Origin: a phage
DNA length: 64,000 nt
Strand: one strand, 5' to 3'
Sequence record: PZ445527.1
Positions within the stretch are counted from its first letter, which is position 1. Each line of letters begins with the position of its first letter. The notes under the pieces were generated by a model. That model saw only the letters and a list, made by a program, of their open reading frames with translations, was not told where the DNA came from and did not search any database. The position numbers and the translations under genes were made by a program. Positions 1-13,719 of this stretch are shown in pieces.

Positions 1-1235
1 TCTTTAATGTTAGCATTACGATCATCAAGCCAACGGGATAGCGCCAAATCGTGATTCGATTCAACAATGATTGTTTGAGAAAAATCGCGCTCCATCGATT
101 CCAGCACGCGACCGGTATCGATAAGATCATCCAGAATTTTATCACGTCCAGCGGCGTACTGTTTTGCTAGGAATACACCGCTGGCGCGATTGTGATGGTT
201 GCGTGATGTAAAATCATGCACGTCATGCACGAATTGATATTTTGGTTTAAGAATATCAAGCAAGCTATTTTCGCCAGCCCATGACGCTGCGGCGCAATCG
301 TCATCTAATTTTTCGGCGTGTATGTCACCATATTGCAAGCCTAAAACATGCCCCGACGTTTCATAGCATCCGGCGGGAGTGGCGCAAATATTCAAATCGT
401 AAAACACGCCGCTTTCATCCATCGTTTCAAGCTGGCGAACAAAAAATTCTCCGTCTTCGTCGAACTCGACAACAAGCGCGCCAAAGTTATGCAGCGCCTC
501 CGCTTTCTGTCCTGCTTTCTGCTGGATGTAATTTTTTAGCGTTGCCGTTCCGGTTGAATACATACGGCGCACTACTTCACCTTTTAAAGCTGGAACGCTT
601 TCGGCGGTGATTTTAGCCGCTCCAATTGCCAGACCTTCAAGATTAAGCGCGGTTGCAGTTTCAGCGAATCCAGAAAGCGGATAGTCTGCGGTAGGTAAAA
701 CGTTAATTTCAGCCATGAAAGCAAAGCGGCGGTTATTTAAAAATACATTCTTATTGCAGATATATTTGTCAAAAGCGGAATCATATTTGATTCCGTTGGC
801 GCCCTCGCCATTTTGAAAACCGTTTTTGTTATAAATAAACTTGCTAACCAGCAAATCAGCGCCGATAAATTGGGCATATTGCTCCAGTGAGGCCAAAAAG
901 TTTTTATGCGGGAACGTATTATTCTGAATCGATGTAATAATAAAGCGTTTTCCCTGCTTTACTTCCCATTGCTCGATCGTGCTAGAAATAACTCCAGCGG
1001 CTTCAGGGCGGTCATCGTTTTTTATGGCTTTTGCTACTTTCGCCGCTTTTGGTTTCGCTGGTTTATTTGCTTCCAGCCAGTCACAAATCGCAGTGGAATG
1101 TTTTGCAGTATCGTAAACCGCTTTTGATATATCGTCGCATACTTCCAGCTTAGTAGCGCGCAGACGTTTACCGTAGAAATTGAAATCAGCGGCAAGGTTG
1201 AGGATCTGGGTTTGTTTTTCTGCGGAAATAACCAT
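1..1235 (-). CDS. metallophosphoesterase-like protein, 3' end truncated by window edge (possible T5 A1-like pre-early protein)
   Basis: Uninterrupted minus-strand reading frame from ATG at 1235 to the window start (over 410 codons), GGAG upstream; phosphoesterase-like motifs GDIH, HDVHDF, ESNHD. Not in the ORF track because no stop lies in the window. Confidence 0.5.
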   Translation of the reverse strand, partial: MVISAEKQTQILNLAADFNFYGKRLRATKLEVCDDISKAVYDTAKHSTAICDWLEANKPAKPKAAKVAKAIKNDDRPEAAGVISSTIEQWEVKQGKRFIITSIQNNTFPHKNFLASLEQYAQFIGADLLVSKFIYNKNGFQNGEGANGIKYDSAFDKYICNKNVFLNNRRFAFMAEINVLPTADYPLSGFAETATALNLEGLAIGAAKITAESVPALKGEVVRRMYSTGTATLKNYIQQKAGQKAEALHNFGALVVEFDEDGEFFVRQLETMDESGVFYDLNICATPAGCYETSGHVLGLQYGDIHAEKLDDDCAAASWAGENSLLDILKPKYQFVHDVHDFTSRNHHNRASGVFLAKQYAAGRDKILDDLIDTGRVLESMERDFSQTIIVESNHDLALSRWLDDRNANIK

Positions 1236-1332
1236 AATAATAAAACTCCATTAAAGGGATTAAAAACGTTTGTTATTGGCAAATATTGCCAGATATAACG
1301 CCTCAAATAATAGGCGTTATAATTTGCAATAT

Positions 1333-1548
1333 TTAACTAATTGGCATTAGGCTAGAACTAACCCCACAAGCAATGGCGGCTATTAAACAAAGTAAGCCCA
1401 ACCGCTTTGCTAATTTAGCTTTACGCTTAAAATAATACGAATCCAGATCATTTTGGAAGTATGCAAATAATAATGAGGCCGCCATAATAAATAAGCCTAG
1501 AATGAGGGATTCAGTAGGGTAAAAGACCATTTTAATAACTCCAGTCAA
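1333..1548 (-). CDS. small membrane protein (71 aa)
   Basis: ORF track; two hydrophobic segments. Confidence 0.45.
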   Translation of the reverse strand: MTGVIKMVFYPTESLILGLFIMAASLLFAYFQNDLDSYYFKRKAKLAKRLGLLCLIAAIACGVSSSLMPIS

Positions 1549-1586
1549 AGGAAATTATAGCGGGGAATATTCCCCGCTAATTAAAT

Positions 1587-1994
1587 TTATTCGCCTGCGG
1601 CTTGTTTTACTTCATCGGCAACGCCTAACAGCTGCGCCACGGCGTCCAGCGTTTCTAATTTTGCGCTTTCCAGGGATGCCAGATCGTCAACGTCTTTGAT
1701 AATGCCGGAATCAATGGCATGTTTTGCAATAACGCGCACGTAATGCGCTTTGCGGATAGAACTACCGCCGCCAACTTTGCGCGGCTTATCGCTTTTCTGA
1801 TACGCTTTCGCGCTGGTCAATTTTGAGCGAACGGACACGGGAGAAGTCGCGCCAACTGCTTTTGCAATTTCTCTCAGGCCGTCGCTGTTGGCGAACTCCA
1901 AGCCGTTCTCATTGATTAGCTGTTGATACATGGTAACAGCCTGCTGGGTGTTTTCTTCATTCCAAGAGAATTTTGCGGTTTTAACGTTAGTCAT
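1587..1994 (-). CDS. hypothetical protein 135 aa (possible pre-early A2-like DNA-binding protein)
   Basis: ORF track; size and position next to the A1-like gene; no motif recognised. Confidence 0.45.
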   Translation of the reverse strand: MTNVKTAKFSWNEENTQQAVTMYQQLINENGLEFANSDGLREIAKAVGATSPVSVRSKLTSAKAYQKSDKPRKVGGGSSIRKAHYVRVIAKHAIDSGIIKDVDDLASLESAKLETLDAVAQLLGVADEVKQAAGE

Positions 1995-2090
1995 GATATA
2001 AACTCCAATTAATTTAATTTAAGGGATAAGATTAACACAATGTTAATCGTTATATACCCCGAACTGCTGGGGTATATAAAGTTAACACTA

Positions 2091-2342
2091 TTACGCTACA
2101 GCTTCCCATTTTTCGTTACGTTGAACAACCTTTACAACGTCGCCGGATTTAACGCGAACGTTATAAATAGTTTTCCCGTTGTTACTCCGTTCCGTTTCAG
2201 CGTAAACCGCATCAATTACATCAAACGGCATAAGCGACGCGCCTTTAATGCGTTCGGCTTTTCCGGTTAGTTCATCCGTTTTAGTAACGAAAGGAATGAA
2301 GACGGATTGACCAATTTTCGGCGCATTAGTAACGTTTTTCAT
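2091..2342 (-). CDS. hypothetical protein 83 aa
   Basis: ORF track; GGAG 8 nt upstream of ATG; inverted repeat attacctg/caggtaat at 2378-2404 upstream. Confidence 0.45.
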   Translation of the reverse strand: MKNVTNAPKIGQSVFIPFVTKTDELTGKAERIKGASLMPFDVIDAVYAETERSNNGKTIYNVRVKSGDVVKVVQRNEKWEAVA

Positions 2343-2569
2343 AGTATAAACTCCAGTTTATTTCGTGGATTGTTCCGCATTACCTGCTAAAAAGTAACAG
2401 GTAATAAGAAAAAATCCGCTCGCCAATATAATCAATTTAAAGAACTCCACTCAGGCCGCTATATCCCGTTAGGGGGCGGGGCACATTTTGGCAAGTACCG
2501 GCCGTCAAATTGTATCAAGTTATCGCTCTTATCGAACTGGGTACATCTTAAAGCCTATCGGCTAGGGTG

Positions 2570-2773
2570 TCAAACTATTTTTTGCAGTTTTTTATGATTT
2601 TCCTTCAGGTCGATCATAATATTTCGCCAGATCATTTCTAGACCTTGCTGGCGGCCTTTCTTGTACTGCTTAAATCGATATTTTACCGATCTTTGCGCTA
2701 TTGTCAATAGCTTTCTAGTATTGCCATCCAGTTTTTTGGCTGGTTTACCAGTGACTAATAAAGTTTGTTTCAT
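2570..2773 (-). CDS. hypothetical basic protein 67 aa
   Basis: ORF track only. Confidence 0.3.
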   Translation of the reverse strand: MKQTLLVTGKPAKKLDGNTRKLLTIAQRSVKYRFKQYKKGRQQGLEMIWRNIMIDLKENHKKLQKIV

Positions 2774-3446
2774 ATCTGCGATCCCTTATAATGTAATAAG
2801 TTTGCCGCCGATAGACTTTAAGATATACCCAATTTTTAAAGAGCGCGGCGGTAAACTTCCCGCCGTGTAGTTCGTCATTGCCGCCCTACGAGATAAATAA
2901 TAACAAATGCCAAAAATGGCGCAACCTTATTTTTGTAAAGAAACGTAAAGAAAGCAAATACTCGCACCGCGTCCGGCGATTGCCCAAGTTTAAAGGAAAC
3001 GGGCGCGCGGATACCATAAAATCCAGCAGATAGGCAAGTAATTTTTTCATTTATATTTGCCTTGCCCTACTTGATTTTTCTAGAATCCATCAGGTGACGA
3101 TAAACGGGCTATCCCTTTATGATGGGATACCTGAAAAATTTACCTCGTTGTAGGACGTTTTAGGCCGCTTATTTTCGAGTTAACAAATATTTAACAAAAG
3201 CAAAATTGAAAAATAGTTGTAAAAGGTATTGACTTTTAAAAATCAAGATTAAACGAGTTATTTTATAAAATTAATTAATTGACTTTTATTTGTTGTTGTG
3301 TACTAGAAAGATAGCAGACTAATAATTACTAGAATGATAATCATGCTGGTGGATTGTAACAGCCTGAACCATTAGCAGACTACTAATTCCGGAAAATCTC
3401 ATTAGCCAACTAACTATTTCCTGAGTTATAATATAAACATAAATTA

Positions 3447-3610
3447 ATGAGAAATAATAACTATAAAAATAATCACCATTATAATAATAACTATAAAAAT
3501 AATAACTATAAAAATAATCGCCATTATAATAATAATTATAAAAATAATCGCCATTATAATAATAACTATAAAAATAATCACCATTATAATAATAACTATA
3601 AGAAACTATC
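3447..3610. repeat. about 4.5 tandem copies of a 30-bp AT-rich unit (aataactataaaaataatcRccattataat)
   Basis: Direct reading of 3456-3590; copies differ at 1-2 positions, one half-copy inserted. Confidence 0.85.
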
Positions 3611-3639
3611 GGTCTAAGTGAGAATCACTATCATTTAAG

Positions 3640-3721
3640 TTATTCACAAAGTTATCCACAGCACAAAATGATTTGACACGATAGGCGGCGATATAAGGGC
3701 TTATCCACAGACTTATCCACA
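3640..3721 (+). promoter_or_regulatory. cluster of four DnaA-box matches (ttattcaca 3640-3648; ttatccaca 3652-3660, 3701-3709, 3713-3721)
   Basis: Matches to DnaA box consensus TTATNCACA, three perfect TTATCCACA. Confidence 0.6.
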
Positions 3722-3731
3722 GGTTTTCCTA

Positions 3732-3747
3732 CTGTATAAATATACAG
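3732..3747. promoter_or_regulatory. LexA (SOS) box-like palindrome CTGTATAAATATACAG
   Basis: CTGT-N8-ACAG with AT-rich spacer, flanked by ta...gg; immediately downstream of DnaA boxes. Confidence 0.55.
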
Positions 3748-3963
3748 GGTAAAAAGGTAGTGTTAACGACTGCAATCAATTTTAAGCGGCCTAAATCGCT
3801 TTCTAACGAGCTAAATGATGCGGGGTAATATTAAAGTAAAGCCTCCACCCGTTGCCCTGGGTGAAGGGTATTGATATTTCTACTTTTACCGTTAACAACG
3901 AAAACGAGTAATAATTAACCTAATGTAAAGTTTTGTAAAGGTCGCCATAATCGGTGGCTTTTT

Positions 3964-3972
3964 TGTTATAAT
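3964..3972 (+). promoter_or_regulatory. candidate extended -10 promoter (TGtTATAAT) for the small-gene cassette
   Basis: TATAAT at 3967-3972 with TG at -15/-14; weak -35. Confidence 0.3.
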
Positions 3973-4031
3973 GCCCCTACACCGTTTGAGGACGGTTGAA
4001 AATTTTCCCAAAAAAATTTTGGAGGCTTAAA

Positions 4032-4262
4032 ATGGTTGCGTATTCTTCTTCTGACGCTCTTTTCACTGGAAAAGGCTGGGTATCAAATCGCTGGATCATT
4101 CAAGAAATGGTGCGGGAGTTCGGCATTGCTAAAACTTACACTACCATTCAGGCGCTTTATGATAATGATCAAATCGATCAGCAAACGGCGGGCTTTTTGC
4201 TGGATACCCTGAAGGCGGAACATTGTACTAAAAAACAAGCCGCCAAAATTGCTTTAATGTAA
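4032..4262 (+). CDS. hypothetical protein (about 76 aa)
   Basis: ORF track frame 3996..4262; start moved to ATG 4032 preceded by GGAGG at 4021-4025. Confidence 0.5.
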   Translation: MVAYSSSDALFTGKGWVSNRWIIQEMVREFGIAKTYTTIQALYDNDQIDQQTAGFLLDTLKAEHCTKKQAAKIALM

Positions 4263-4270
4263 CTAATAAC

Positions 4271-4289
4271 GGGGCGTTATTTTCGCCCC
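4271..4289 (+). terminator. GC-rich stem-loop (ggggcg-ttatttt-cgcccc), possible terminator
   Basis: Perfect 6-bp GC stem right after stop at 4262; no clear U-tract. Confidence 0.35.
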
Positions 4290-4310
4290 ACTAACTAGGG
4301 GGGAATGAAA

Positions 4311-4457
4311 ATGGTTATTTTTCGATCAATTCTGGCGGGTATCTTGGGCGCTGTTTTATCACTTTTTGCCATAGCTTTCGGCGTTCACGCGGTTATTGTT
4401 GGCGCGGGTATCGCCGTTTTTTCTTATTTGCTGGGCTGCATGAGTAAAGGGGAATAA
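4311..4457 (+). CDS. small membrane peptide (48 aa)
   Basis: ATG at 4311 after gggggga; hydrophobic sequence MVIFRSILAGILGAVLSLFAIAFGVHAVIVGAGIAVFSYLLGC; below ORF track size cut-off. Confidence 0.45.
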   Translation: MVIFRSILAGILGAVLSLFAIAFGVHAVIVGAGIAVFSYLLGCMSKGE

Positions 4458-4459
4458 AA

Positions 4460-4672
4460 ATGATCCGCAACGTTTCTCTTGCTCGTTCGAAAGGCTTTAA
4501 GCTGGTGGACGTTAACACGTTCGAGCGGGAAGATTGTAAAATTGAATATATAGCACGGAATAAAAACGCCTTCCGTGTTACTGAAAAGAAATTCGATAAG
4601 CGCGGCAACGTGATCGCTGAAACGGTTAGACACTTTGCCACCTTTTACGCGGCCTTTCGTGGGGTACTATGA
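4460..4672 (+). CDS. hypothetical protein 70 aa
   Basis: ORF track; aagggga upstream; start overlaps previous stop. Confidence 0.5.
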   Translation: MIRNVSLARSKGFKLVDVNTFEREDCKIEYIARNKNAFRVTEKKFDKRGNVIAETVRHFATFYAAFRGVL

Positions 4673-4794
4673 AAAGCGTTGTTATTGTTATCCTTGCAAT
4701 GGTTGGCGGTTTTACCGCCACCTTATTTAAGAATGATCCCCTTTCATTGGGGATTTTTATGCTTTTATCTGGTTACCTGATTGGGAGGTTATAA
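4669..4794 (+). CDS. small membrane peptide (41 aa)
   Basis: ATG at 4669 overlapping previous stop (ctATGa); hydrophobic MKSVVIVILAMVGGFTATLF... Confidence 0.4.
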   Translation: MKSVVIVILAMVGGFTATLFKNDPLSLGIFMLLSGYLIGRL

Positions 4795-4795
4795 A

Positions 4796-5140
4796 ATGGT
4801 AATTTATGAAGGCAATCGCTTTGTTACTAATTGCCGCCCGGCATTGTTAGCAAACTACTTAAACCAGCTTTCTCCTGAATATAAGGGCGTTGTTAATATT
4901 TACGAGGGAAAAGCGCATTATAAGATTAATGCGGTCGTTGCCCGTGAACTAGCGTTTCAATTTTTGACCTTTGCATCTTGTGATATTCAGGTCATGGGGG
5001 AGGCGTTAATCGCAGAAAATGAAAATGATTTTATTAATATTTTTCGCAAAGTATGCACCGAGCGCCTGATAATGAAAGGCGCATATATTCAATCCACTGC
5101 GGATAGTATTGAAACAGCGTTTCGAAAGGTGGCACAATGA
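4796..5140 (+). CDS. hypothetical protein (114 aa)
   Basis: ORF track frame 4781..5140; ATG 4796 preceded by GGGAGG. Confidence 0.5.
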   Translation: MVIYEGNRFVTNCRPALLANYLNQLSPEYKGVVNIYEGKAHYKINAVVARELAFQFLTFASCDIQVMGEALIAENENDFINIFRKVCTERLIMKGAYIQSTADSIETAFRKVAQ

Positions 5141-5155
5141 AATTATATATTTTCG

Positions 5156-5434
5156 TTGGTAATAGTAAGGCAGCTAATGATTCCGCTGGGGGCGATAACG
5201 TTCGCCACTATTGGCAAAAATATATTTACTAGGGTTATTATGAGCAATAAAATTATTATAACTAAAACTACCACAATGGTAGACGTTTTTTACGTGCCCG
5301 ATACGCCGGAAAACCGGCAAGCGGTCGAGCGGGGTGATTATGGTAGCGTTATTTATGATGCCGATGGCTATTATCGGCATTTGGTCGATTCCTATGGGGA
5401 AGAGGAGAAGATCACGCATCGACTACCAGACTAA
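5156..5434 (+). CDS. hypothetical protein, start uncertain (possibly internal ATG near 5240)
   Basis: ORF track; acidic C-terminal half; followed by a GC hairpin at 5441-5470. Confidence 0.35.
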   Translation: MVIVRQLMIPLGAITFATIGKNIFTRVIMSNKIIITKTTTMVDVFYVPDTPENRQAVERGDYGSVIYDADGYYRHLVDSYGEEEKITHRLPD

Positions 5435-5469
5435 TAATAACGGGGCGCAACTATCAGGGAGTGCCCCCA

Positions 5470-5516
5470 ATTCTCAAATGAGAATCATTCTCAAATGAGA
5501 ATGATTCTCATTTGAC
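5470..5516. repeat. imperfect palindromic repeats built on tctcaaatgagaatCattctca
   Basis: Direct reading; same aatgagaat motif family recurs at 5840-6030. Confidence 0.7.
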
Positions 5517-5707
5517 CGCGCCCGCGATGGTTAGCCTGCTAATGATTAGGGTGTTACGTGTCGCCTTGTGTGATCGTTAGCTCGCTAACTAATTTTCAAG
5601 CCTCCTCCAATTTTGCCCTTGTTTTAGTATCCCCGCCAAAATTAAACGCGTTAGAATGCGATTCAGGACGTTTTAGCGGTATATTAGAATTATTCACTGC
5701 ATAGGAA

Positions 5708-5727
5708 TACTGTATAAATATACAGTA
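5708..5727. promoter_or_regulatory. LexA (SOS) box, 20-bp consensus-like tACTGTATAAATATACAGta
   Basis: CTGT-N8-ACAG with TA flanks; second copy of the 16-mer at 3732-3747. Confidence 0.6.
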
Positions 5728-5747
5728 GAATAACCTGGGGATAAGTC

Positions 5748-5817
5748 TGTGGATAACGCTTCAAAATGGCTAGGATTCTGTCAAGTCAAATCGTGCTGTT
5801 GATAAGTCTGTGGATAA
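5748..5817 (-). promoter_or_regulatory. two DnaA boxes in inverted orientation (tgtggataa at 5748-5756 and 5809-5817), each within gataagtctgtggataac
   Basis: Reverse complement of TTATCCACA; the 18-bp context is the inverse of cttatccacagacttatcc at 3700-3718. Confidence 0.6.
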
Positions 5818-5839
5818 CTTAAATAACAGTGTTTCTCAC

Positions 5840-6030
5840 TTCCGTTTTTAAATGCGAATCATTATCATTCGTATTCCACTATCTAACCGATAATCATTCC
5901 ACTTTTTAAATGAGAATCGTTTCACTTCTTGAATAGTTCTCATTCCCTTTCTTAAATGCGAATAATTATCATTCGCATTTCACTTTTTAAATGAGATTGA
6001 TTCTCATTATCATTCGCATTCAGGCGAGCA
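5840..6030. repeat. cluster of degenerate repeats (ttttaaatgMgaat / tcattatcattcg units)
   Basis: Direct reading: at least 4 copies of ttttaaatg[c/a]gaat and 3 of (t)cattatcattcg. Confidence 0.65.
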
Positions 6031-6050
6031 GGGCAATTGCCCTGCGCTTT

Positions 6051-6653
6051 TGTGCAAATCCGACATCTGCTCCAAGGGTTACGTGCTGGCGTGTATGTGC
6101 AAATCCGACAATTTTTGGTAGTGTGCAAATCCGACCCGAAAAATTTTTATAGTGTGCAAATCCGACGACGAATCTGTCTCCCAAAAACTCCAGCAATCAC
6201 GAACTGCGTTCGAATCCTGTGGGATATGTGCAAATCCGACATGGTTTTTCTAGGATTAAGATGTGCGAATCCGACAAGATTTTTGTGACTTCGATTGAAG
6301 GGTGTGTGATTGTGTGGGTTTGAGGAGAAGATGAGAGAGCGAGAGAAATTTTGGGACTAGAAGGATGTGGGCGCAGGATTGGTGCGGAGCACCTGATTTG
6401 CGGGGATTTTGGGGAAGATGTGGGATAATTTGGGAAGATTTGAGATAGGTGCAGAAAAAGTGAAATTTTATTAGCAAAATGGGGCAAAATAGCTTGACAA
6501 GTGAAAATTTCTGTGGCTCTAAAAACTCAGGCAATCATGGGCCTTCGGCCCGAAATAATGCTGCTATTTTCAGGAGAGTAGGAGTTCCTAAAAACTTAGG
6601 CGTTTGTGCAAATCCTACCATAAATTTCTAGAATATCAATGTGCAAATCCGAC
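6051..6653 (+). repeat. iteron-like array: 8 dispersed direct copies of TGTGCAAATCCGAC (6051, 6106, 6122, 6153, 6227, 6263 variant, 6605 variant, 6640)
   Basis: Six exact 14-mers plus two 1-mismatch variants, all same orientation, in non-coding DNA. Confidence 0.85.
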
Positions 6654-6689
6654 AGTAATTTCTGGAAATGTGTTTTCGAAAAATGTCTC

Positions 6690-6790
6690 CTAGAAATAAC
6701 CGCCCTCCCTATAACCGCCCTATATTAACCGCCTATTGCTAGAGTTTCTAGGAACAATGAAAACCGCCTGAGTTGACTAAAGTTTTCATA
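6690..6790 (+). repeat. four copies of a short aaccgcc(c/t) motif
   Basis: ataaccgccct, tataaccgccct, attaaccgcct, aaaaccgcct within 100 bp. Confidence 0.5.
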
Positions 6791-7189
6791 AAAACTTAGG
6801 AGTCTAGAAGAAAGTGTTGTGCCATCCTAGCAGATGAGCGGCAACAGGTGTATCATCTTGAATGTAAATTATATGGTCAAAAGTTTTACTTTTATTTTAA
6901 ATATAAGATCCCCCAGGGTTCTCATATAGAGCTTTGCCCCCGCCAGAAGGTCTCGTGATGTTTCTAGCAATTTATATTAAATTACTTATTAACTTGTCCT
7001 GTCGCTCCGTATCCTCCGCTACAAGTTAGTAATTTTAAATTACTGAACCACCACACCTTCTGTGTGGCAACTCTAAATGGTTAATTCTATTAACTCATAG
7101 AGTTATGATAACATACATTTAGCTATCTGTCAACGAAAGTTTGTATTTGAGTCTCGGTACAGGTATTGTGCACCGAGACATGCAGAGTA

Positions 7190-8074
7190 TTATAATAATT
7201 CTTGGTATGCTTTTTGATACGCCTCAGTATCTGTAGGTGTATCTTTTGCTAACGCAATTAGTTCATCTGTTATCTGAACATTCGTACTATAACGTTGGTG
7301 GAACTCTTCTGGGATTTCTAGGTATCTATTTATGAACGCTGCAGCAAGCGGTGTAACTAACCCAATTTCTAGGGATAACTTAACTTGTTTCTCATAAATT
7401 AAATATTGAGAGTCAGATGGGGTTGGTGGGGTTACATCAACTTTTTCTGGTTCTTTTTCTGGAAGCAATGGATTGTTATACAATGCTTCATCTGGAAGCA
7501 CAGATTTACGCTCTTTAAATATATAAGTTTCTAGATCCGATGCTTTAGATCCTGAGTAAACAGCGAAGATGCTAGCTTTACCTTGAGATGCCCTAACTGG
7601 TAAGTAACTAGTAGGATAGCTCCTTAATGCATCGTGGAATGGACTTCCTGAGTATTTGTACGTATCCCCATAGAGATCATCAATATTCATTCGTTCATCT
7701 TCAAAGATATGGAAAGAGCTAAATGATGGAATGGTGAAGTATTCCATCTGTAACCCATAAACTAAGAAACGATGTGCATATGCGCTAATCTTTAAGACTG
7801 TAAATGCTTTCTCACCTTCTTTATAAGAATTGCCCTTTGAAGTAACTTGATAACGCTTACAAAACATCTCTACTAGACGTTTCTCATTAATATTGAGTGA
7901 GGAATATAAACGTCCATTTAGCCCTAGAAGGGCATCAAACATAAATGCTAACTTATCTTTTTCTTCTTGGGACAGTTCTGGAAATGGTAATACTTTCGCA
8001 TTAGGAACATTATTGTTCTCTTTAGGTTTTGTTTTACCAGCATTTTGTCTTAGCTTATCTTTAAAGTTATACAT
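7190..8074 (-). CDS. hypothetical protein 294 aa
   Basis: ORF track; first gene of the long leftward block. Confidence 0.6.
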   Translation of the reverse strand: MYNFKDKLRQNAGKTKPKENNNVPNAKVLPFPELSQEEKDKLAFMFDALLGLNGRLYSSLNINEKRLVEMFCKRYQVTSKGNSYKEGEKAFTVLKISAYAHRFLVYGLQMEYFTIPSFSSFHIFEDERMNIDDLYGDTYKYSGSPFHDALRSYPTSYLPVRASQGKASIFAVYSGSKASDLETYIFKERKSVLPDEALYNNPLLPEKEPEKVDVTPPTPSDSQYLIYEKQVKLSLEIGLVTPLAAAFINRYLEIPEEFHQRYSTNVQITDELIALAKDTPTDTEAYQKAYQELL

Positions 8075-8153
8075 TATTATCTCCCGTTTTTAAGGTCTGG
8101 ATGACCTTCTTTTTATTTTAGAGCCTCCATAGAGGCTCGTGTATTAGGAATTA

Positions 8154-8765
8154 TTAATCCTTTTTACTTTCGTTAATAACAGCCCCTAATGCTTCCATAA
8201 TTGCATCTTCTAAACTTCCATGTTTATCAGGATTGCTTAAGTGAATAGTATAAACAGAATTCCTAGAAACTCCAGAGTCCGCTGGTGCTACGCTTTTCAT
8301 GTCAGATTCAAAAGCTTCTTGAGTATGTTTCAATTGTACAGAAGGTCCATAATCTTCACCAACTCGGTAGGACTGATTAGACGACAGTGTACCACCACAT
8401 GGAACATTGTGCAAATCCGACGTTATTTTAGGGCTGTTCCACATTGTAATTGGCCCTGACTGCCACGGATCTCGAATAGTCACAGGAGTACTAGGACGGT
8501 TAACCTCAGTCTTCACAAGTTTATAGCCAGCATCGATTAGTGTATTAATTAGATTATCAGCTGGGATGCGAGCTTTGCCAAAGATCTTACGAGCGTTGTT
8601 GAGCCTACCTTCAAAATCTTTACATGCTTTAATATTAGTGTGCGCAAAGGTTAGCTTCATAGATTTGAACTGTACAGTGGCAGTTAAATCTTTAAAAGCA
8701 TAATCCCACGTATTCAGTTCATGATCTGGTACTACTTGAATAGATTGCTGTGCATATAAAGTCAT
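8154..8765 (-). CDS. hypothetical protein 203 aa
   Basis: ORF track; contains one copy of TGTGCAAATCCGAC at 8408-8421. Confidence 0.6.
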   Translation of the reverse strand: MTLYAQQSIQVVPDHELNTWDYAFKDLTATVQFKSMKLTFAHTNIKACKDFEGRLNNARKIFGKARIPADNLINTLIDAGYKLVKTEVNRPSTPVTIRDPWQSGPITMWNSPKITSDLHNVPCGGTLSSNQSYRVGEDYGPSVQLKHTQEAFESDMKSVAPADSGVSRNSVYTIHLSNPDKHGSLEDAIMEALGAVINESKKD

Positions 8766-8950
8766 TATTTATTCTCCAGTTTGTCTAACATCTTATGAGC
8801 TGCTAGGTTATATTGTTTAAGTTCACGATTAAGGATTTGGTTCTCACACTTTAGTTCTAGGTTCTCCTTGTTAAGGAGATTGCAGATTAGTAGAAGTGCT
8901 AGTATAACTAGCAGAGAACCTACGAGCATTAAAAGAAAAAGAGTTTCCAT
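8765..8950 (-). CDS. small membrane protein 61 aa
   Basis: ORF track; N-terminal hydrophobic helix; overlapping stop/start. Confidence 0.5.
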   Translation of the reverse strand: METLFLLMLVGSLLVILALLLICNLLNKENLELKCENQILNRELKQYNLAAHKMLDKLENK

Positions 8951-9183
8951 TATTTAATTCCCATGTAACGTTTGAGATACATGATGAAGTCTTCTGTTGT
9001 ATGTTCTACGCTACCCTGAACCACAAACAACTTTAAAGCCTCACGCTGTAATTTAAGAGCAGCTAACTCACCGCGTAATTTTGTTATATCTTCCGCTAGT
9101 TCTCTAGCTCTGCGCATAATAGCAAATGATACAGATGTTACAATAAATAACATAACTGCTAAAATAATTACTATGAACTCCAT
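8950..9183 (-). CDS. small membrane protein 77 aa
   Basis: ORF track; N-terminal TM segment then charged helix. Confidence 0.5.
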   Translation of the reverse strand: MEFIVIILAVMLFIVTSVSFAIMRRARELAEDITKLRGELAALKLQREALKLFVVQGSVEHTTEDFIMYLKRYMGIK

Positions 9184-9461
9184 ATTAACATCCAGCTCTT
9201 ATCGTATATTTGGGCATGTTCTACTAATTCATTTATTGATATAGAATTATCGTAGATACTCTCTAGTAAACATTTTCTGTCAAATTTATCTACCAAATAC
9301 TCCGCGCCATTTATCACTACCCTATATAGCTCTGGAACTAAGGGGTGTTTGTTTGGTATTGGGCGACTGCCTAAGTCTATTTCATTATATCCCCACGTTG
9401 TTTTAAATAGTTTGTTACTAAGTGCTGCTAGTGGGTTTGACCATACAATATAGCTACTCAC
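9171..9461 (-). CDS. hypothetical protein 96 aa
   Basis: ORF track. Confidence 0.45.
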   Translation of the reverse strand: MSSYIVWSNPLAALSNKLFKTTWGYNEIDLGSRPIPNKHPLVPELYRVVINGAEYLVDKFDRKCLLESIYDNSISINELVEHAQIYDKSWMLIWSS

Positions 9462-10002
9462 TATTTATCTCCATTCTTAACTTTGAAAACTTATTATACC
9501 AAACTATGTAATTATCGTCAATTACAAATTTATGATAACATGCTGGTACGGTATAAGTTCCATAATCCGTGACACGCTGCACAACCTTGTGTGCGCACAG
9601 TCGACATCCATGCCCTTCTAAATGAGATCTAGCAGTTTGCCAGTAATAACCATCATGGTCTGGACAATAGATCTCGACTTGCTGTTGCATTGTCTTATAA
9701 TTTACACGCTCATACCCGAAGAAAGCCCCGTGAGCTGCAATAGCTTTCTTGATAAATATAAGGTTTAGCGCTTCTTGCTGGAAGTCGGGATGTAGCTGCT
9801 TAATTTTAGTTCTATTAATAGACCCATCCGATTTGATGAACCTATTTATTGGAAAGTTGTTAGCTTCCTCGATTAATAATTCATTTACTTTCTCTCTCAT
9901 ATTAGATACTCTCACAACTAAGGTGGAAACATTCGTAAGCATCCCCAGTAAACTCTTTATCTTGTAATAAACACTTAGCCTGGTCTTCCGGTACTCCAGC
10001 AT
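9454..10002 (-). CDS. hypothetical protein 182 aa (Cys/His-containing, HGCRLCAH)
   Basis: ORF track; start may be internal. Confidence 0.5.
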   Translation of the reverse strand: MLEYRKTRLSVYYKIKSLLGMLTNVSTLVVRVSNMREKVNELLIEEANNFPINRFIKSDGSINRTKIKQLHPDFQQEALNLIFIKKAIAAHGAFFGYERVNYKTMQQQVEIYCPDHDGYYWQTARSHLEGHGCRLCAHKVVQRVTDYGTYTVPACYHKFVIDDNYIVWYNKFSKLRMEINSE

Positions 10003-10105
10003 CTAATAATTGTTGTTTACTTGGCTTTTCAGCAAATACCTTTACAAAATACTCGCCATCCTGATTATACTCATTTATATCTCTAGTAAGGACATATACT
10101 TGCAT
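9902..10105 (-). CDS. hypothetical protein 67 aa
   Basis: ORF track; overlaps 5' end of previous ORF so one start is probably wrong. Confidence 0.35.
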   Translation of the reverse strand: MQVYVLTRDINEYNQDGEYFVKVFAEKPSKQQLLDAGVPEDQAKCLLQDKEFTGDAYECFHLSCESI

Positions 10106-10123
10106 TTAAAGTTCCTTGAAAAC

Positions 10124-10153
10124 ATAAAAGGCCAGAACAATTAAGTCCTGGCC
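10124..10153 (-). terminator. rho-independent terminator (ggccag...ctggcc stem, U-tract)
   Basis: 6-bp stem at 10130-10153 followed on minus strand by UUUU (plus aaaa 10126-10129). Confidence 0.55.
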
Positions 10154-10161
10154 TCCTAAAA

Positions 10162-10533
10162 TTAATGAAGTTGTTTACCACTTCTTAACATAGTGGCCGT
10201 TTCCATAAGACCTAGCGTAGCATCACGCTTATTGATCTGTTTACCAAGTTCATCAGTACGTTTACTGATGTAAGCATTAATAGCCATATTCATAGCTGTA
10301 GCGAGATCTTCTTTGGTTATCTCTTCATCGTCTAAAGCTAATTTAGCCAAAGAATCAAATGTGCTAGAGAGTCCTATAAGATCTGAGGTTTCTCCAGCCA
10401 AAATAGGATTAATATTATCTACTGTTACTTCTAGCATGGAGTTGACAATATCTTCACCGTCTATTAGACCAGTTTCAATATTACTCTCCCACTCCTTCAT
10501 CTGCTCCAATAATGGATTTTTCTTTTCTGTCAT
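10162..10533 (-). CDS. hypothetical acidic protein (about 123 aa)
   Basis: ORF track 10162..10599; start moved to internal ATG to avoid 119-nt overlap. Confidence 0.45.
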   Translation of the reverse strand: MTEKKNPLLEQMKEWESNIETGLIDGEDIVNSMLEVTVDNINPILAGETSDLIGLSSTFDSLAKLALDDEEITKEDLATAMNMAINAYISKRTDELGKQINKRDATLGLMETATMLRSGKQLH

Positions 10534-10942
10534 GGTAGAGGTTTCCTGTGTCAGTCGGTAAGAAGGATGATTGCGTTTTAGGTGGATGTTGCTTAGCAAT
10601 CCAGTTAAGAATCAGCACGCGACTAGGAACAATATCGGTGTTATACCAAAAATCGTGAACCCATTGACGAGCGTCTTCAAACTTACCAAATTTATATGCT
10701 TTCTTAAACAATTCAAATCCAAAACAATCTGGTGTAAAGTCTACTTCGCGATATTGAATTACTTTAGAACCAGTTAGGTCTTGGATCGCTGCATTAATTT
10801 CTGTATGTGAGAATTTTGTTTCATGAAACTTATTAAAGAATCGGTAGTTGAAGCGTCCGTTCGTTTCGACAAACAACTGGATGAAAAGATCGTTAAATTG
10901 GTTATCAAACCAGTAATTCTGTAGTTGTTGTAGTGCTGTCAT
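10481..10942 (-). CDS. hypothetical protein 153 aa
   Basis: ORF track. Confidence 0.5.
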   Translation of the reverse strand: MTALQQLQNYWFDNQFNDLFIQLFVETNGRFNYRFFNKFHETKFSHTEINAAIQDLTGSKVIQYREVDFTPDCFGFELFKKAYKFGKFEDARQWVHDFWYNTDIVPSRVLILNWIAKQHPPKTQSSFLPTDTGNLYHDRKEKSIIGADEGVGE

Positions 10943-11139
10943 TTACGAACCCCGTTAATCGCCATAATGATGCCTTCGTACATAAAAGGAAGTAGCCCAG
11001 AAGTATAGAATATACTTTCCGTTATTCCTAGATGTCGAAAAAGTACATTAAATAACGCTGTTAGAAATACAATCTGAGGCAATAATACAAAATACTCAGT
11101 TACAATCTTTGGTGCCTGATAAACAAGACGTTTTATCAT
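10939..11139 (-). CDS. small membrane protein 66 aa
   Basis: ORF track; hydrophobic. Confidence 0.45.
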   Translation of the reverse strand: MIKRLVYQAPKIVTEYFVLLPQIVFLTALFNVLFRHLGITESIFYTSGLLPFMYEGIIMAINGVRK

Positions 11140-11238
11140 TGTTTTTAAGTCTCCTTATTACTTTGGCCTGCTCCACAATAATGAAAACTGCGAGCACTAA
11201 TAGTGCTATTAGCCCCGCAGTAATTGGTACTAAATCAA

Positions 11239-11583
11239 TCATGGGAGACGCCATACGTAATTAGCTGTCTGTAGGACCATAGGAGTACCATTATGGTGCA
11301 TTACTACAGACGTTGGAGAGTAACTATTCGCCAGTTCTGTACGAACCATCTCACGTTCTTCTCCAGTTTCAATATTTTTAACAACCACCTTCATTTTGAG
11401 AGGTGTCAGTTCAGAGAGCGGTTTCCAAGAGTCCTCAATTTCAATTCCTACCTTTTTCTCAATTAACATGAGAACTTCTAGTGTATCATCTGGAATACTA
11501 ATATTATTATTTACAAACTGTAACAGCTCATGCAAAGTATTTAATTCGTTGAAATTAAGTTTCATCTTTAAGAATATCCTCAA
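11239..11583 (-). CDS. hypothetical protein 114 aa
   Basis: ORF track. Confidence 0.5.
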   Translation of the reverse strand: MRIFLKMKLNFNELNTLHELLQFVNNNISIPDDTLEVLMLIEKKVGIEIEDSWKPLSELTPLKMKVVVKNIETGEEREMVRTELANSYSPTSVVMHHNGTPMVLQTANYVWRLP

Positions 11584-11800
11584 TCATATCACAGGACTGT
11601 TGCAATTCGTCAGCAATGCGCTTAACATCGGTCTTCGTCACTTTACCGATTAACATCACTAGTAGCATAGAAAATATAACAAGGGGAACTGGAATAACAA
11701 ATAATGCTACCTTAACTACATTCTTTGGTGCCCATGTATGGTATTTAGTAACTAGAACTCCCACCACGATTAGATAAAATGCTAGAATAAACATCATCAT
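11555..11800 (-). CDS. small membrane protein 81 aa
   Basis: ORF track; two TM segments. Confidence 0.5.
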   Translation of the reverse strand: MMMFILAFYLIVVGVLVTKYHTWAPKNVVKVALFVIPVPLVIFSMLLVMLIGKVTKTDVKRIADELQQSCDMIEDILKDET

Positions 11801-12078
11801 TTTTTAATCTCCGTAATTATCTGTGCACGCATTACTTTATTAGGTAATTTTGTATTCCCAGCTATTGCTTCAATATTATTTAGTTTTTCTTTAAGAATAT
11901 CTGAGCGTCTTTGTGCTAATTCAATATCTTGCTCTTGCTCTAGTAACCGGTGGTGTAGCCCATCATTAGTAATGAGCATACTTTCCATGTTTTTTCGTGC
12001 GTTTACAATCCCAATAACTCCACCAATCGCTACTAGCGTAGTAAGAACCAGTAACCCAATAAGAATTTCAATCAACAT
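11797..12078 (-). CDS. membrane-anchored coiled-coil protein 93 aa
   Basis: ORF track. Confidence 0.5.
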   Translation of the reverse strand: MLIEILIGLLVLTTLVAIGGVIGIVNARKNMESMLITNDGLHHRLLEQEQDIELAQRRSDILKEKLNNIEAIAGNTKLPNKVMRAQIITEIKK

Positions 12079-12241
12079 TAAATGTCCTTACATTTTTCAT
12101 TGTTTGGAACTAGTTTACACATCTCCACATTTAACTCGTGGATAGAATTGTCTAGTTCTTCTAAACGTGTGTGAAGAAAAACTATACTATATATTAACAC
12201 TCCTAAAAGGAGTGACAGCATAAAAATGGATAGTCTTTCCA

Positions 12242-12538
12242 TTATTTCTTACCTTTCAGTTGTTTAACTTCACGCTCAAAGCTAGCTGCACGGCGTTCTG
12301 CCACTGCTTGATGCTCCTTAGCAAAGCGTGCCTCTTGTTTTGCTAAGTTAAAGGCCATAGCGTTCTTGTTAAGAGAATCATACATCTTCTTCATCGCCGG
12401 AATAGACATTTTCATCAGTTGCCCCTCAAATCCTTGCATGTCGAGGAGAATTGCTAATACATTGGCCATTTCAGTCTTGGTAAGGTTAGAGGCGTCGAAG
12501 TCTTTAGTCATGTTTTCCATTAGAATTTCCTCTCTCAT
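12242..12538 (-). CDS. hypothetical protein 98 aa
   Basis: ORF track; consensus promoter immediately upstream. Confidence 0.55.
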   Translation of the reverse strand: MREEILMENMTKDFDASNLTKTEMANVLAILLDMQGFEGQLMKMSIPAMKKMYDSLNKNAMAFNLAKQEARFAKEHQAVAERRAASFEREVKQLKGKK

Positions 12539-12553
12539 TAATTTATGAACTTA

Positions 12554-12582
12554 TTATACAGAATTTTGAGGTTTAAAGCAAC
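12554..12582 (-). promoter_or_regulatory. sigma70 promoter, T5 early type (TTGCTT-17-TATAAT)
   Basis: Minus strand reads TTGCTT, 17-bp spacer, TATAAT; AT-rich upstream; gene start about 20 nt downstream. Confidence 0.7.
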
Positions 12583-12598
12583 TGAATTTTTTAATTAC

Positions 12599-13030
12599 TT
12601 ACCAATCGTTAACAACACCAGAGAACTCAGAAGCAAAAACTTTCTCAAATTTTTCTGCAATTTCAGGATGATCCTTACAGATCAACTCAATACATGCTTC
12701 TGGAGTCATTCCTTCGTCTTCAGGATCACCATAATACTTGTCCCAAAGATCGTCAGGGATGATGTGCTCTGCCAAATCTTGGAAAGAGATTAGCTGATAA
12801 CGTTCTGCTTCCTCAGGGATAAGGATTTCACAAAGATCTTTATCTATATCACTACGGTAATCAGCAATTAGCAGGGCATTGCAAGCATGACACTCCCAAA
12901 CCATCAAGCGTTCAGAAATAGAATTAGACTTATCCTGAATGTAGGACTGAAACAGGGTTCGAAAAGTAGCTTTAACTTGTTCAAACTTATCTGCTGCTGC
13001 AAAAACTAGAGCTTTATCAACTTTGTTCAT
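12599..13030 (-). CDS. hypothetical acidic protein 143 aa
   Basis: ORF track. Confidence 0.55.
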   Translation of the reverse strand: MNKVDKALVFAAADKFEQVKATFRTLFQSYIQDKSNSISERLMVWECHACNALLIADYRSDIDKDLCEILIPEEAERYQLISFQDLAEHIIPDDLWDKYYGDPEDEGMTPEACIELICKDHPEIAEKFEKVFASEFSGVVNDW

Positions 13031-13060
13031 TTTGTTTCCTTCTCATCAATTTATAAAGTA

Positions 13061-13089
13061 ATTATACAGAAACTTAGGCATTTTAGCAA
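13061..13089 (-). promoter_or_regulatory. sigma70 promoter, T5 early type (TTGCTA-17-TATAAT)
   Basis: Minus strand TTGCTA(17)TATAAT then gagaagga SD and ATG at 13030. Confidence 0.75.
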
Positions 13090-13197
13090 ATAAAACTTTT
13101 AATTAAAATGCCTAATCCTGTACTAATAGCAATACAAATGATTATAAGTATTGCTACTGCTTGTATGACTCGTTTAATGATAACCTCAGCTATATAC

Positions 13198-13719
13198 TTA
13201 GACATTTAACATCCAGCTAGTTTTATCATGGGAAGTATACTTACCACTCATGATGTCTTCCAGGCGTACTGGTGATTTTGCATACTCTACACAAACGTTA
13301 ATATAACGAGGGTCTCCCATTAACTCAAAGTGAGTATGCCCATGTAAGTTCTTTTTACCCCTCAGCTCCTCTGGATGTACTGGAGCATGGGAAAGCCAAA
13401 AGTTTTTATACTTAACTAGGGATTGTACATTATCTACTACTCCTACTAAGTCTTTGAAAGATAACCCTTCTCGTTCTAAGTCGTGGTTCCCCAAAACTAA
13501 TATAGTTCTAACATTGCTAAAGAGTTTTTCGAACTTTTCCAAACCATTTCTAGATACAAATGCATCTCCTAAAATATAAAATACTGTACGCTTATCTTTC
13601 ATGGATGTAATAGTATCCATAATAAATTCATCATGCTCTTCCATAGTAGAGAAGATTGGTCTGAATTTAGTAATATTTGCATGTCCTAAATGGAGATCAC
13701 TCCAAAAGCAAACTTTCAT
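13198..13719 (-). CDS. metallophosphoesterase (calcineurin-like) 173 aa
   Basis: Motifs DLHLGH, GDAFVSRNG, GNHD, HGHTH. Confidence 0.7.
   Translation of the reverse strand: MKVCFWSDLHLGHANITKFRPIFSTMEEHDEFIMDTITSMKDKRTVFYILGDAFVSRNGLEKFEKLFSNVRTILVLGNHDLEREGLSFKDLVGVVDNVQSLVKYKNFWLSHAPVHPEELRGKKNLHGHTHFELMGDPRYINVCVEYAKSPVRLEDIMSGKYTSHDKTSWMLNV

Follow-up and report, generated by a model that had tools for sequence, protein, structure and literature searches.

A T5-like injection-stop region with a candidate LexA box beside each of its two DnaA-box clusters

Reviewed work on bacteriophage T5 describes DNA entry that pauses at about 8% of the genome and requires A1 and A2 to resume, as well as ejection of the whole genome in vitro through purified FhuA. 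In the annotated T5 genome (NC_005859), the left terminal repeat spans 1-10219 and contains an 'injection stop signal' at 9140-10149 and the major nick at 9748/9749 on the minus strand, with the first early gene, T5.018, following at 10936-11820. Davison compared 25 T5-like phages and defined Repeat Regions 1, 2 and 3, which hold the elements IRC-spacer-IRD and IRD'-spacer-IRC', eight DnaA boxes that form pairs with a 3-nt separation, two copies of DRE, nine of DRD and many palindromes, the repeat region overrunning into unique DNA (bioRxiv 10.1101/866236). Here we compare with these structures the region 2870-7190 of a 64,000-nt stretch of phage DNA (record PZ445527.1; the whole stretch is called the window below), which an earlier note had described as a repeat-dense, nearly gene-free region at the pre-early/early boundary with the architecture of the T5 injection-stop region.

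We found that T5 2136-5419 aligns with window 1-3283 at 90% identity and T5 9317-13000 with window 5616-9255 at 93%. Base-by-base alignment placed the T5 injection stop signal at 5454-6449, the nick at 6047/6048, the end of its left terminal repeat at 6519 and the start of T5.018 at 7190, bearing out the proposed resemblance, since stop signal, nick and repeat end all map inside the region. The flanks are also T5-like, with A2 (1587-1994, minus strand) and pre-early genes on the left and a T5.018 homologue (7190-8074, minus strand) on the right. A megablast search with 2870-7190 matched 517 phage records, nearly all of them T5-like phages of Salmonella, Escherichia and Klebsiella, with at least 80% query coverage in 123; a host or plasmid origin was ruled out, as no match was present in 5,426 E. 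coli genomes or among the PLSDB plasmids. Collinear with T5 and hundreds of T5-like phages at 87-93% nucleotide identity, the region is very probably the orthologue of the right half of the T5 left terminal repeat together with the unique spacer preceding the early genes. No deposited phage exceeds about 92% identity to the first 20 kb of the window (the nearest being T5, Shivani and PMBT29), and by this measure the source can be placed in the T5 group as a new member. Because the hallmarks of Davison's Repeat Regions are all reproduced here, the structure is the one already known from T5 (Heusterspreute 1987; Wang 2005; Davison 2015 and 2020), a composite in which cis-acting sites are interleaved with small pre-early genes. 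The region adds one further instance of what has been known from T5 since 1987 and alone changes nothing; its interest is that it bears on why T5 DNA entry pauses at 8%, which has been unexplained since 1968.

The T5 injection stop signal and Repeat Regions 1-3 occupy the same position as their counterparts in the window and share with them one order of elements, namely IRC-spacer-IRD, genes, IRD'-spacer-IRC', two DRE repeats, palindromes, nick site, DRD array and terminal-repeat end, with 93% identity in Repeat Region 3 and DnaA boxes alike in being paired 3 nt apart with a 61-nt pair spacing. Among the differences, the segment T5 6341-7454 is missing from the window, whose phage is without T5.011 and its promoter; the hegG insertion of T5 (at T5 5419) is absent, which leaves Repeat Regions 1 and 2 fused; an AT-rich tandem array is expanded to ten units, unlike in T5; and at the place of T5's own terminator there is another segment, of 180 nt, that includes a perfect 42-nt palindrome. 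The same scan gave six consensus DnaA boxes (plus two variants) in the window and four in the T5 record, and 8+1 DRD copies in the window against 9+1 in T5. Davison counts seven DnaA sites in T5, taking consensus and variant together (bioRxiv 10.1101/866236). Every repeat family on the list of the earlier note was recovered, at the coordinates given there or a few bases away, and is non-random. Those that it left unnamed are the published IRC/IRD, DRE/DRC/pal and DRD families, and to its list we add the 132-nt inverted repeat, the DnaA boxes and two LexA-type boxes. Its 'nearly gene-free' has to be given up, as seven small open reading frames (ORFs) match PHROG families and cover 1424 of 4321 nt (33%). 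The features are collected in Table 1.

Table 1. Features of the region and its surroundings (window coordinates unless a relative is named)
Feature	Position	Strand	Basis or remark
Leftward pre-early ORF, 54 amino acids	2886-3050	-	phrog_17446, E 1.4e-21
Non-coding stretch equivalent to T5 Repeat Region 1	3051-3446		collinear with T5 up to T5 5419 (hegG site)
Inverted repeat I3	3138-3171 / 3783-3816		inverted-repeat scan
TAGCAGACTAAT-type repeats	3312-3329, 3373-3390		repeat family D11
TTAGCCAACTAA	3402-3413		in the 3051-3446 stretch
AT-rich tandem array, ten 15-nt units alternating AATAATAACTATAAA / AATAATCRCCATTAT	3447-3610 (array 3452-3601)		Tandem Repeats Finder, family D1
Inverted repeat I1, 132 nt	3616-3747 / 5710-5841		77% complementary, arms 1962 nt apart
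Left module, IRC-spacer-IRD (T5 Repeat Region 2)	3616-3749	+	I1 arm
Palindromic unit of left module	3616-3639	+	degenerate-unit scan
DnaA pairs of left module	3640-3648 / 3652-3660, 40-nt gap, 3701-3709 / 3713-3721	+	consensus scan
Left LexA-type box TACTGTATAAATATACAGGG	3730-3749	+	3 mismatches, CTGT-N8-ACAG core intact; 8 nt past DnaA pair
Terminator-like hairpin	3937-3962	+	hairpin scan
Extended -10 element TGTTATAAT	3964-3972	+	sequence reading; 3' of hairpin 3937-3962
Six small rightward pre-early ORFs	4032-4262, 4305-4457, 4460-4672, 4669-4794, 4796-5140, 5240-5434	+	PHROG matches, E 1e-25 to 1e-64
Perfect palindrome of AATGAGAAT units, 20-nt arms, 2-nt centre	5474-5515		I9, 100% complementary
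TTAGCCTGCTAA	5531-5542		3' of the 42-nt palindrome
TTAGCTCGCTAA	5577-5588		3' of the 42-nt palindrome
Right module, IRD'-spacer-IRC' (T5 Repeat Region 3)	5708-5841	-	I1 arm; mirror orientation
Right LexA-type box TACTGTATAAATATACAGTA	5708-5727	-	1 mismatch to 20-nt consensus; 8 nt before DnaA pair
DnaA boxes of right module	5736-5744 (variant), 5748-5756, 40-nt gap, 5797-5805 (variant), 5809-5817	-	scan; variants by sequence reading
Two 67-nt DRE repeats	5833-5899, 5937-6003 (block to 6021)		D7, 79%
GC-rich hairpin GCAGGGCAATTGCCCTGC then T run, terminator-like	6028-6052	+	terminator scan
Site equivalent to T5 major 7.9% nick, leaving 5'-pGCGC	6047/6048	-	alignment; sequence identical to T5 here
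First DRD sub-array, six copies of GTGCRAATCCGAC in one orientation	6052-6275	+	D5, D6
Purine-rich, C-poor tract	6290-6480	+	66.5% purine, 38% G, 6% C; GC skew +0.44
Predicted right end of terminal repeat, ...TTGACAAGTGAAAATTTCTGTGGCTC / TAAAAACTCAGG	6519/6520		T5 end 10219 maps here
Second DRD sub-array, two copies, just outside predicted terminal repeat	6606-6653	+	D8
Four AACCGCC repeats, the first two ATAACCGCCCT	6696-6768	+	motif count; ATAACCGCCCT twice exactly
Spacer between AACCGCC region and 7190	6800-7189		about 99% identical to T5
Ninth DRD copy, exact	8409-8421		inside ORF 8154-8765 (T5.019 homologue)
LexA-type boxes, distant phages	phi 3 (L067) 7227; L068 6345, 9443, 10120; My1 (L069) 7854, 11805; Sugarland-like phage (L070) 5948, 9764; L072 5073; L073 605		motif scan
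DRD iteron spans, relatives	My1 12357-13285; Sugarland-like phage 10036-10636; phi 3 7514-7749

The arms of I1 align with T5 6098-6228 and T5 9411-9542, and six of the seven consensus DnaA boxes in the 64-kb window fall within the two modules that they form. In the right module two further boxes, TTATCCCCA and TTATCAACA (reverse-complement boxes 5736-5744 and 5797-5805), are variants, giving eight DnaA or variant boxes that are paired at a distance of 3 nt, two pairs to each arm, with the pairs 61 nt apart from start to start in both arms (D14, D15), as in T5. We examined conservation in 27 relatives anchored only on the A2 gene. Between 93 and 100% of them have the stretch 5695-6794, with an identity of 85-94%, and the genes to its left are present in 59-93%. 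The right module is our prime candidate for the injection stop.

Next to each DnaA cluster lies a LexA-type box, which may be one new detail of the region. Of the 20 positions of the gammaproteobacterial LexA consensus, TACTG(TA)5CAGTA (TACTGTATATATATACAGTA), the right box matches 19, and the left box has a centre composed entirely of A/T. Shuffling of the window gave no LexA-box match at three or fewer mismatches, and CTGT-N8-ACAG occurs at only three sites in 64 kb, the third, outside the modules, having a GC-rich centre. The left box overlaps the -10 element of a predicted promoter-like site scoring 10/12 (minus strand, 3766 to 3739), and the promoter-like sites near the right box reach only 9/12. 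The motif (G)CGTTTTAG was seen 30-40 nt outside the LexA-type boxes, at 3154-3170, 5666-5680 and, as its reverse complement, 3783-3816; it also adjoins the box in Vibrio phage phi 3 (7181-7198, 7281-7298) and may be a further conserved part of the module. LexA and SOS are not mentioned in Davison's preprint (bioRxiv 10.1101/866236), and literature searches whose coverage did not extend to the earlier T5 papers returned no paper linking LexA to T5-like phages; we claim no priority.

In alignments anchored on the DnaA pairs, most of 28 relatives carry a LexA-type box 8 nt from the inner DnaA pair, and this fixed offset holds in both modules of most of them. The changes observed in the box affect only its A/T centre or yield CTGG/CCAG forms, which are also found among natural SOS boxes. 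Close relatives are too similar to be informative, and six distant Demerecviridae were picked by A2 protein homology alone: the Vibrio phages phi 3, D36, vspsw1 and Thalassa, Pectobacterium phage My1 and a Sugarland-like Klebsiella phage. In each, within flanks that cannot be aligned, a CTGT-N8-ACAG with an A/T centre lies no more than 100 nt from a DnaA box; of 300 dinucleotide shuffles made per locus, only 0-3 reproduced this proximity. When IMG/VR was scanned for the composite LexA/DnaA pattern, 20 stretches were returned, 19 of them on contigs of 96-128 kb; the exception, on an 11-kb contig (L024), looks like a chance match in coding sequence. The DnaA pairs and the LexA-type box are thus the only parts surviving in relatives with unalignable surroundings, which narrows the candidates. 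The conserved core of the T5-family stop region may be a high-affinity LexA operator 8 nt from DnaA pairs, possibly with Fur-like palindromes on its flanks, instead of the palindromes or iterons as such, a reading that we put forward tentatively and would sooner doubt than assert. If it is true, incoming DNA would be held, timed or transcriptionally insulated by host LexA and DnaA, and the SOS state of the host would affect the pause or the expression of the pre-early genes.

We also considered A2, a DNA-binding protein on which second-step transfer depends, as a LexA mimic that reads the box. Its sequence showed weak similarity to LexA_DNA_bind, with which an hhalign alignment agreed, and a PDB sequence search with the A2 profile returned nothing useful; the candidate was rejected on the predicted structure, an all-helical bundle without a LexA-like winged helix that best matches the GcrA DNA-binding domain and then Myb-like folds. 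Moreover, A2 falls to 34-39% identity in Vibrio phages, and the box is kept across hosts that share the LexA motif, which favours a host protein as its reader.

Between the right module and the nick site lies the block of DRE repeats, which contain palindromic AAATG(A/C)GAAT...ATT(A/C)TCATT units with a 6-nt TGNGAA periodicity (D3, D4, D10, I6). The AATGAGAAT-type palindromic units reported earlier are indeed far more frequent than chance would give: against an expectation of 0.15, the degenerate unit AAATGMGAATNATTMTCATT matches 13 times, and every match falls in 3616-3636 or 5476-6009. The segment 5434-5616, which includes the perfect palindrome, does not align with T5 itself and is present in 63-71% of the relatives. 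The palindromic unit is kept in My1, the Sugarland-like phage and vspsw1, and similar units were observed near the modules of Vibrio and Klebsiella T5-like phages (L072 at 5220 and the Sugarland-like phage at 9464-9490) and in an intergenic region of the unrelated myovirus phAPEC8 (L071 2460-2600), which also shows a 55-nt match. When compared with the Fur-box consensus GATAATGATAATCATTATC, the units match 13-16 of 19 positions, and Fur-type matches of at least 13/19 cluster at 3330-3620 and 5474-6000, with the best in the window at 5993 (16/19); AT-rich DNA inflates such scores. Units nearer to that consensus (TGATAATCATTCTCA) are present close to the modules in vspsw1 and the Sugarland-like phage as well as in phAPEC8. 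We take the Fur likeness as a lead only. Fur-box matches are also found inside dmp near the left genome end, at 228-252 in T5 (16/19) and 161-185 in the Sugarland-like phage (18/19).

The complete ejection obtained with purified FhuA implies that the virion alone does not stop and suggests that the host contributes to the stop. In the mechanism that we favour, the left DNA end would enter first and transfer would pause with about 8% inside. The first-step-transfer shear point of T5, at 9618 in AY587007 (about 9698 in NC_005859), corresponds to about 5997 in the window, and the pause point would then fall inside the DRE/palindrome block, to the right of the right module and left of both the hairpin and the nick site. 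During the pause the right module would already be in the cell and the DRE/palindrome block at the envelope, leaving the nick site, iterons and repeat end on the virion side. Host LexA and DnaA, the latter largely membrane-associated, would bind the LexA-type box and DnaA pairs of the right module on entry, and the nucleoprotein complex formed with the neighbouring palindromes would hold the DNA until released by A1 and A2. The hairpin 6028-6052 would end rightward transcription at the held point, and the DRD iterons and the CTAAAAACTYAGG motif, which bracket the repeat end and would be on the virion side of the pause, would more probably serve end formation and packaging than the stop. A host-factor brake of this kind at the right module is possible, though we regard it as doubtful. 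The LexA/DnaA core and the association of the iterons with the boundary are both directly testable with a few point mutations and host mutants.

Several points weigh against a brake of this kind. Binding by DnaA and LexA, or a need of either for the pause, is a proposal inferred from the sequence, and Davison's DnaA model is itself only a proposal (bioRxiv 10.1101/866236). Protein binding in the cell would normally favour DNA entry, not block it. T5-like phages have been propagated on recA1 hosts, for example DH5a (host field of the record), and RecA-driven LexA cleavage therefore cannot be required for transfer to resume. In addition, T5 carrying a deletion that runs from hegG to 017 remains viable, forming small plaques; judged from gene order, the deletion should remove the left module, which appears to be dispensable, so that looping between the modules would not be essential.

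The sequences beyond the pause point invite a different explanation. The iteron array noted earlier is clearly non-random, GTGCAAATCCGAC having nine matches (eight at 6052-6653 and one at 8409) against 0.88 expected, a number reached in none of 100 shuffles, and its first sub-array belongs to the family of T5's nine DRD repeats. T5 (12154) and DT57C (10393) have a DRD copy at the place equivalent to the ninth. The three-copy motif CTAAAAACTYAGG was likewise recovered at 6519, 6588 and 6788, two copies exact and one with a single mismatch, and no other copy exists at 0-1 mismatch; the first CTAAAAACTCAGG copy straddles 6519/6520, and the further copies occupy 6588-6600 and 6788-6800. We predict that the terminal repeat of the window phage ends at 6519/6520. 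The terminal repeats of T5 and Spc35 end at ...CTGTGGCTC / TAAAAACTCAGG, and of 12 full-length T5-like contigs with a terminal A2 copy, eight end at the base equal to window 6519, which speaks against the boundary lying elsewhere, the finding by which the earlier note would have been overturned; the DT571/2 record ends one base further on. Against this end, the Kenya-K20 and chee24 records annotate other terminal-repeat ends, and for the window phage, with one repeat copy in the window, the assignment rests on homology.

The DRD iterons, the CTAAAAACTYAGG motif and the boundary sequence may be considered as a terminase recognition and cutting site for the right genome end, an explanation that concerns only 6052-6800 and is compatible with the host-factor brake. 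DRD sub-arrays bracket the repeat end in T5 (9753-9962 and 10306-10478 around 10219), in the window (6052-6275 and 6606-6653 around 6519) and in My1 (12357-12445 and 13101-13285 around 12854), and in Vibrio phage phi 3 they precede it (7514-7749, end at 7769). All DRD copies lie past the shear point and hence would not yet have entered the cell when transfer pauses; within Repeat Region 3 no other 100 nt are as well conserved as 6495-6594 (94%); and the iteron GTGCRAAWCCGA is kept across subfamilies in which A2 is only 34-54% identical, with arrays in My1, the Sugarland-like phage and phi 3 and one to three copies in Ceto-/Thalassa-like Vibrio phages. Since injection begins with the left end, packaging should begin with the right end and start at this boundary, although this direction is inferred from a 'last in, first out' rule. 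However, the iteron is lacking in four other distant relatives (vspsw1, D36, L009 and L025), terminase binding to DRD is a candidate only, and the other cut, at the T5 left boundary, has neither DRD nor a related motif. The idea that both terminal-repeat boundaries carry the same motifs was rejected, as no DRD or CTAAAAACT motif was found at the T5 left boundary; just inside the T5 left end there are one AACCGCC copy and one TTAGNNNNCTAA match only. We consider a packaging site a serious possibility, somewhat short of an even chance. A GGGCC-TTC-GGCCC hairpin was observed at 6539-6551, 20 nt past the predicted repeat end and within the most conserved 100 nt.

It is less probable, and on the whole unlikely, that the stop is encoded by DNA structure, the palindromes (5474-5515, 5850-6021 and the hairpin 6028-6045) or 132-nt inverted repeats extruding hairpins or cruciforms, or the nick discontinuity stalling passage. 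The pause point and the DNA immediately to its left do hold a cluster of palindromes, one perfect and 42 nt long and several of 20-26 nt (I6, I9, I17, I19), the nick site is about 50 nt beyond the pause point, and the palindromic unit is retained in My1, the Sugarland-like phage and vspsw1. However, DNA passes the tail unaided in the complete ejection triggered by purified FhuA, the palindrome 5474-5515 is absent from T5 itself, and the units, with their 6-nt periodicity, look like two-fold symmetric protein-binding sites. Interruption-deficient T5 mutants, reportedly found viable by Rogers and Rhoades in 1979, also count against a structural stop.

The 132-nt repeats could alternatively flank an invertible or exchangeable cassette (3750-5707), being substrates of recombination and not signals. 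No part of the terminal repeat varies more than what lies between the arms, which ranges from 1.85 to 4.26 kb in Davison's comparison and has 59-93% coverage here, and in My1 (8019-10487) and the Sugarland-like phage (6130-8980) most genes between the modules are on the opposite strand relative to window 4032-5434, as expected after an inversion. We nevertheless hold this explanation to be quite improbable: neither the cassette nor its surroundings encode a recombinase or transposase, sites of host-factor type with precise spacing in the arms are conserved far beyond alignable DNA, and in Type 4 phages, which have lost one arm, the one retained is that nearer the pause point. Least probable of all is that the region is or contains a replication origin, as might be suggested by eight DnaA-type boxes, nine iterons and a 150-nt AT-rich array resembling an unwinding element directly left of four of the boxes, an AT-rich run beside DnaA boxes being common in relatives, since the origins of T5 were mapped close to the middle of the genome and first-step DNA lacks the replication genes (Davison, bioRxiv 10.1101/866236), no initiator-like gene adjoins the region, as an iteron-type origin would have, the array is variable and mostly absent in relatives, and the iterons are at least about 250 nt from the DnaA modules and more than 2 kb from the array.

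To the left of the stop signal, genes were called by searching the ORF list against PHROG families. The seven matching ORFs (E 1e-21 to 1e-64), one leftward and six rightward, are collinear with T5.012-T5.017 and related genes, and the truly non-coding parts of the region are about 3051-4031 and 5435-7189. The six rightward ORFs are homologues of T5.012-T5.015, T5.017 and a 41-amino-acid ORF of Spc35, T5.016 not being aligned; ORF 4460-4672 matches phrog_4227, annotated 'endonuclease nicking abasic sites'. The 3937-3972 stretch, with its hairpin and extended -10 element, is likely the start of the rightward pre-early operon in the window phage, which lacks T5.011 and its promoter. About 400 nt left of the AT-rich array hold repeats of the TAGCAGACTAAT and TTAGC-N3-CTAA types, and TTAGCNNNCTAA has 5 matches against 1.17 expected. 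The tandem repeats reported at 3447-3610 resolve into an array of period 15 with ten copies and a 30-/45-nt higher order. Only 28-58% of the 27 relatives align over it, and in most relatives an AT-rich run of 55-100 nt is found at a distance of 30-130 nt from the first DnaA box; we read the array as a lineage-specific expansion of the AT-rich segment that relatives have left of the DnaA boxes. ORF 3447-3617, inside the array, matched no PHROG family, and like DT57C 5237-5431, annotated 'repeat completion protein', and two Kenya-K20 coding sequences, it is probably a repeat artefact. For annotators, the gain is a likely terminal-repeat end at 6519/6520 and a warning that ORFs called inside repeats, such as 3447-3617, are probably spurious. 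The plus strand of the 64 kb carries four Chi sequences (GCTGGTGG), at 3345, 4501, 44987 and 62936, of which two are inside the terminal repeat; the minus strand has none.

On the early side, the purine-rich stretch at 6290-6480 proved to be the compositional extreme of the window, whose most purine-rich 191 nt start at 6301. This tract, in the last 230 nt or so of the terminal repeat, has 86-89% identity in 93% of the relatives. A leftward transcript of it would be C-rich and G-poor, like a Rho-utilisation site, and the tract could stop leftward early transcription into the terminal repeat. A G-quadruplex at 6402-6434 (GGGG-N5-GGGG-N7-GGG-N7-GGG) was dropped: the motif fits, but its third G run is broken in T5. 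The aaccgcc repeats were found as four AACCGCC copies at 6698-6768, with one other plus-strand copy in 64 kb. A segment of about 6895-8094 is present in only one third of the 27 relatives, at 85-94% identity where present. Since only this third carries it, the near-identity of the spacer with T5 is best taken as that of a shared accessory cassette, comprising the spacer from about 6895 to 7189 and the T5.018-like gene, and not as a mark of a constrained element; a hidden RNA or deeply conserved element in 6800-7190 was rejected on the same ground. A search of Rfam over 2400-7400 gave nothing but a chance sub-threshold hit. Other phages carry different genes at the terminal-repeat/early boundary, for example a homing endonuclease in DT57C. 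The best sigma-70-like match of the region (minus strand, 7133 to 7105; TTGACA, 17 nt, TATCAT with an upstream TG, 11/12) points leftward, into the spacer and toward the terminal repeat, with no evident gene downstream.

Outside the T5 group, parts of the region can be set beside four known kinds of site. Short direct repeats flank the cut genome end in T7 pac, in the arrays around the T7 terminal repeat and in the R sites of lambda cosB, as the DRD arrays do here, but the T7 terminal repeat is 160 bp long against about 10 kb here, and the other boundary here has no matching array. Fur boxes have T/A where the palindromic units keep a symmetric G/C (GAGAAT or GCGAAT, not GATAAT). DnaA clusters of the oriC, datA and DARS type resemble those of the window in having high-affinity TTATCCACA boxes with fixed helical spacing beside an AT-rich segment; in the window, however, the boxes fall into two modules in inverted orientation, about 2 kb from each other and with an operon between them, and an origin function is improbable. 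Finally, SOS boxes of bacteria belong to SOS genes or to the switches of temperate phages, whereas the candidate LexA boxes of the window lie in the incoming DNA of a virulent phage and, unlike the operators of SOS genes, stand 8 nt from a pair of DnaA boxes.

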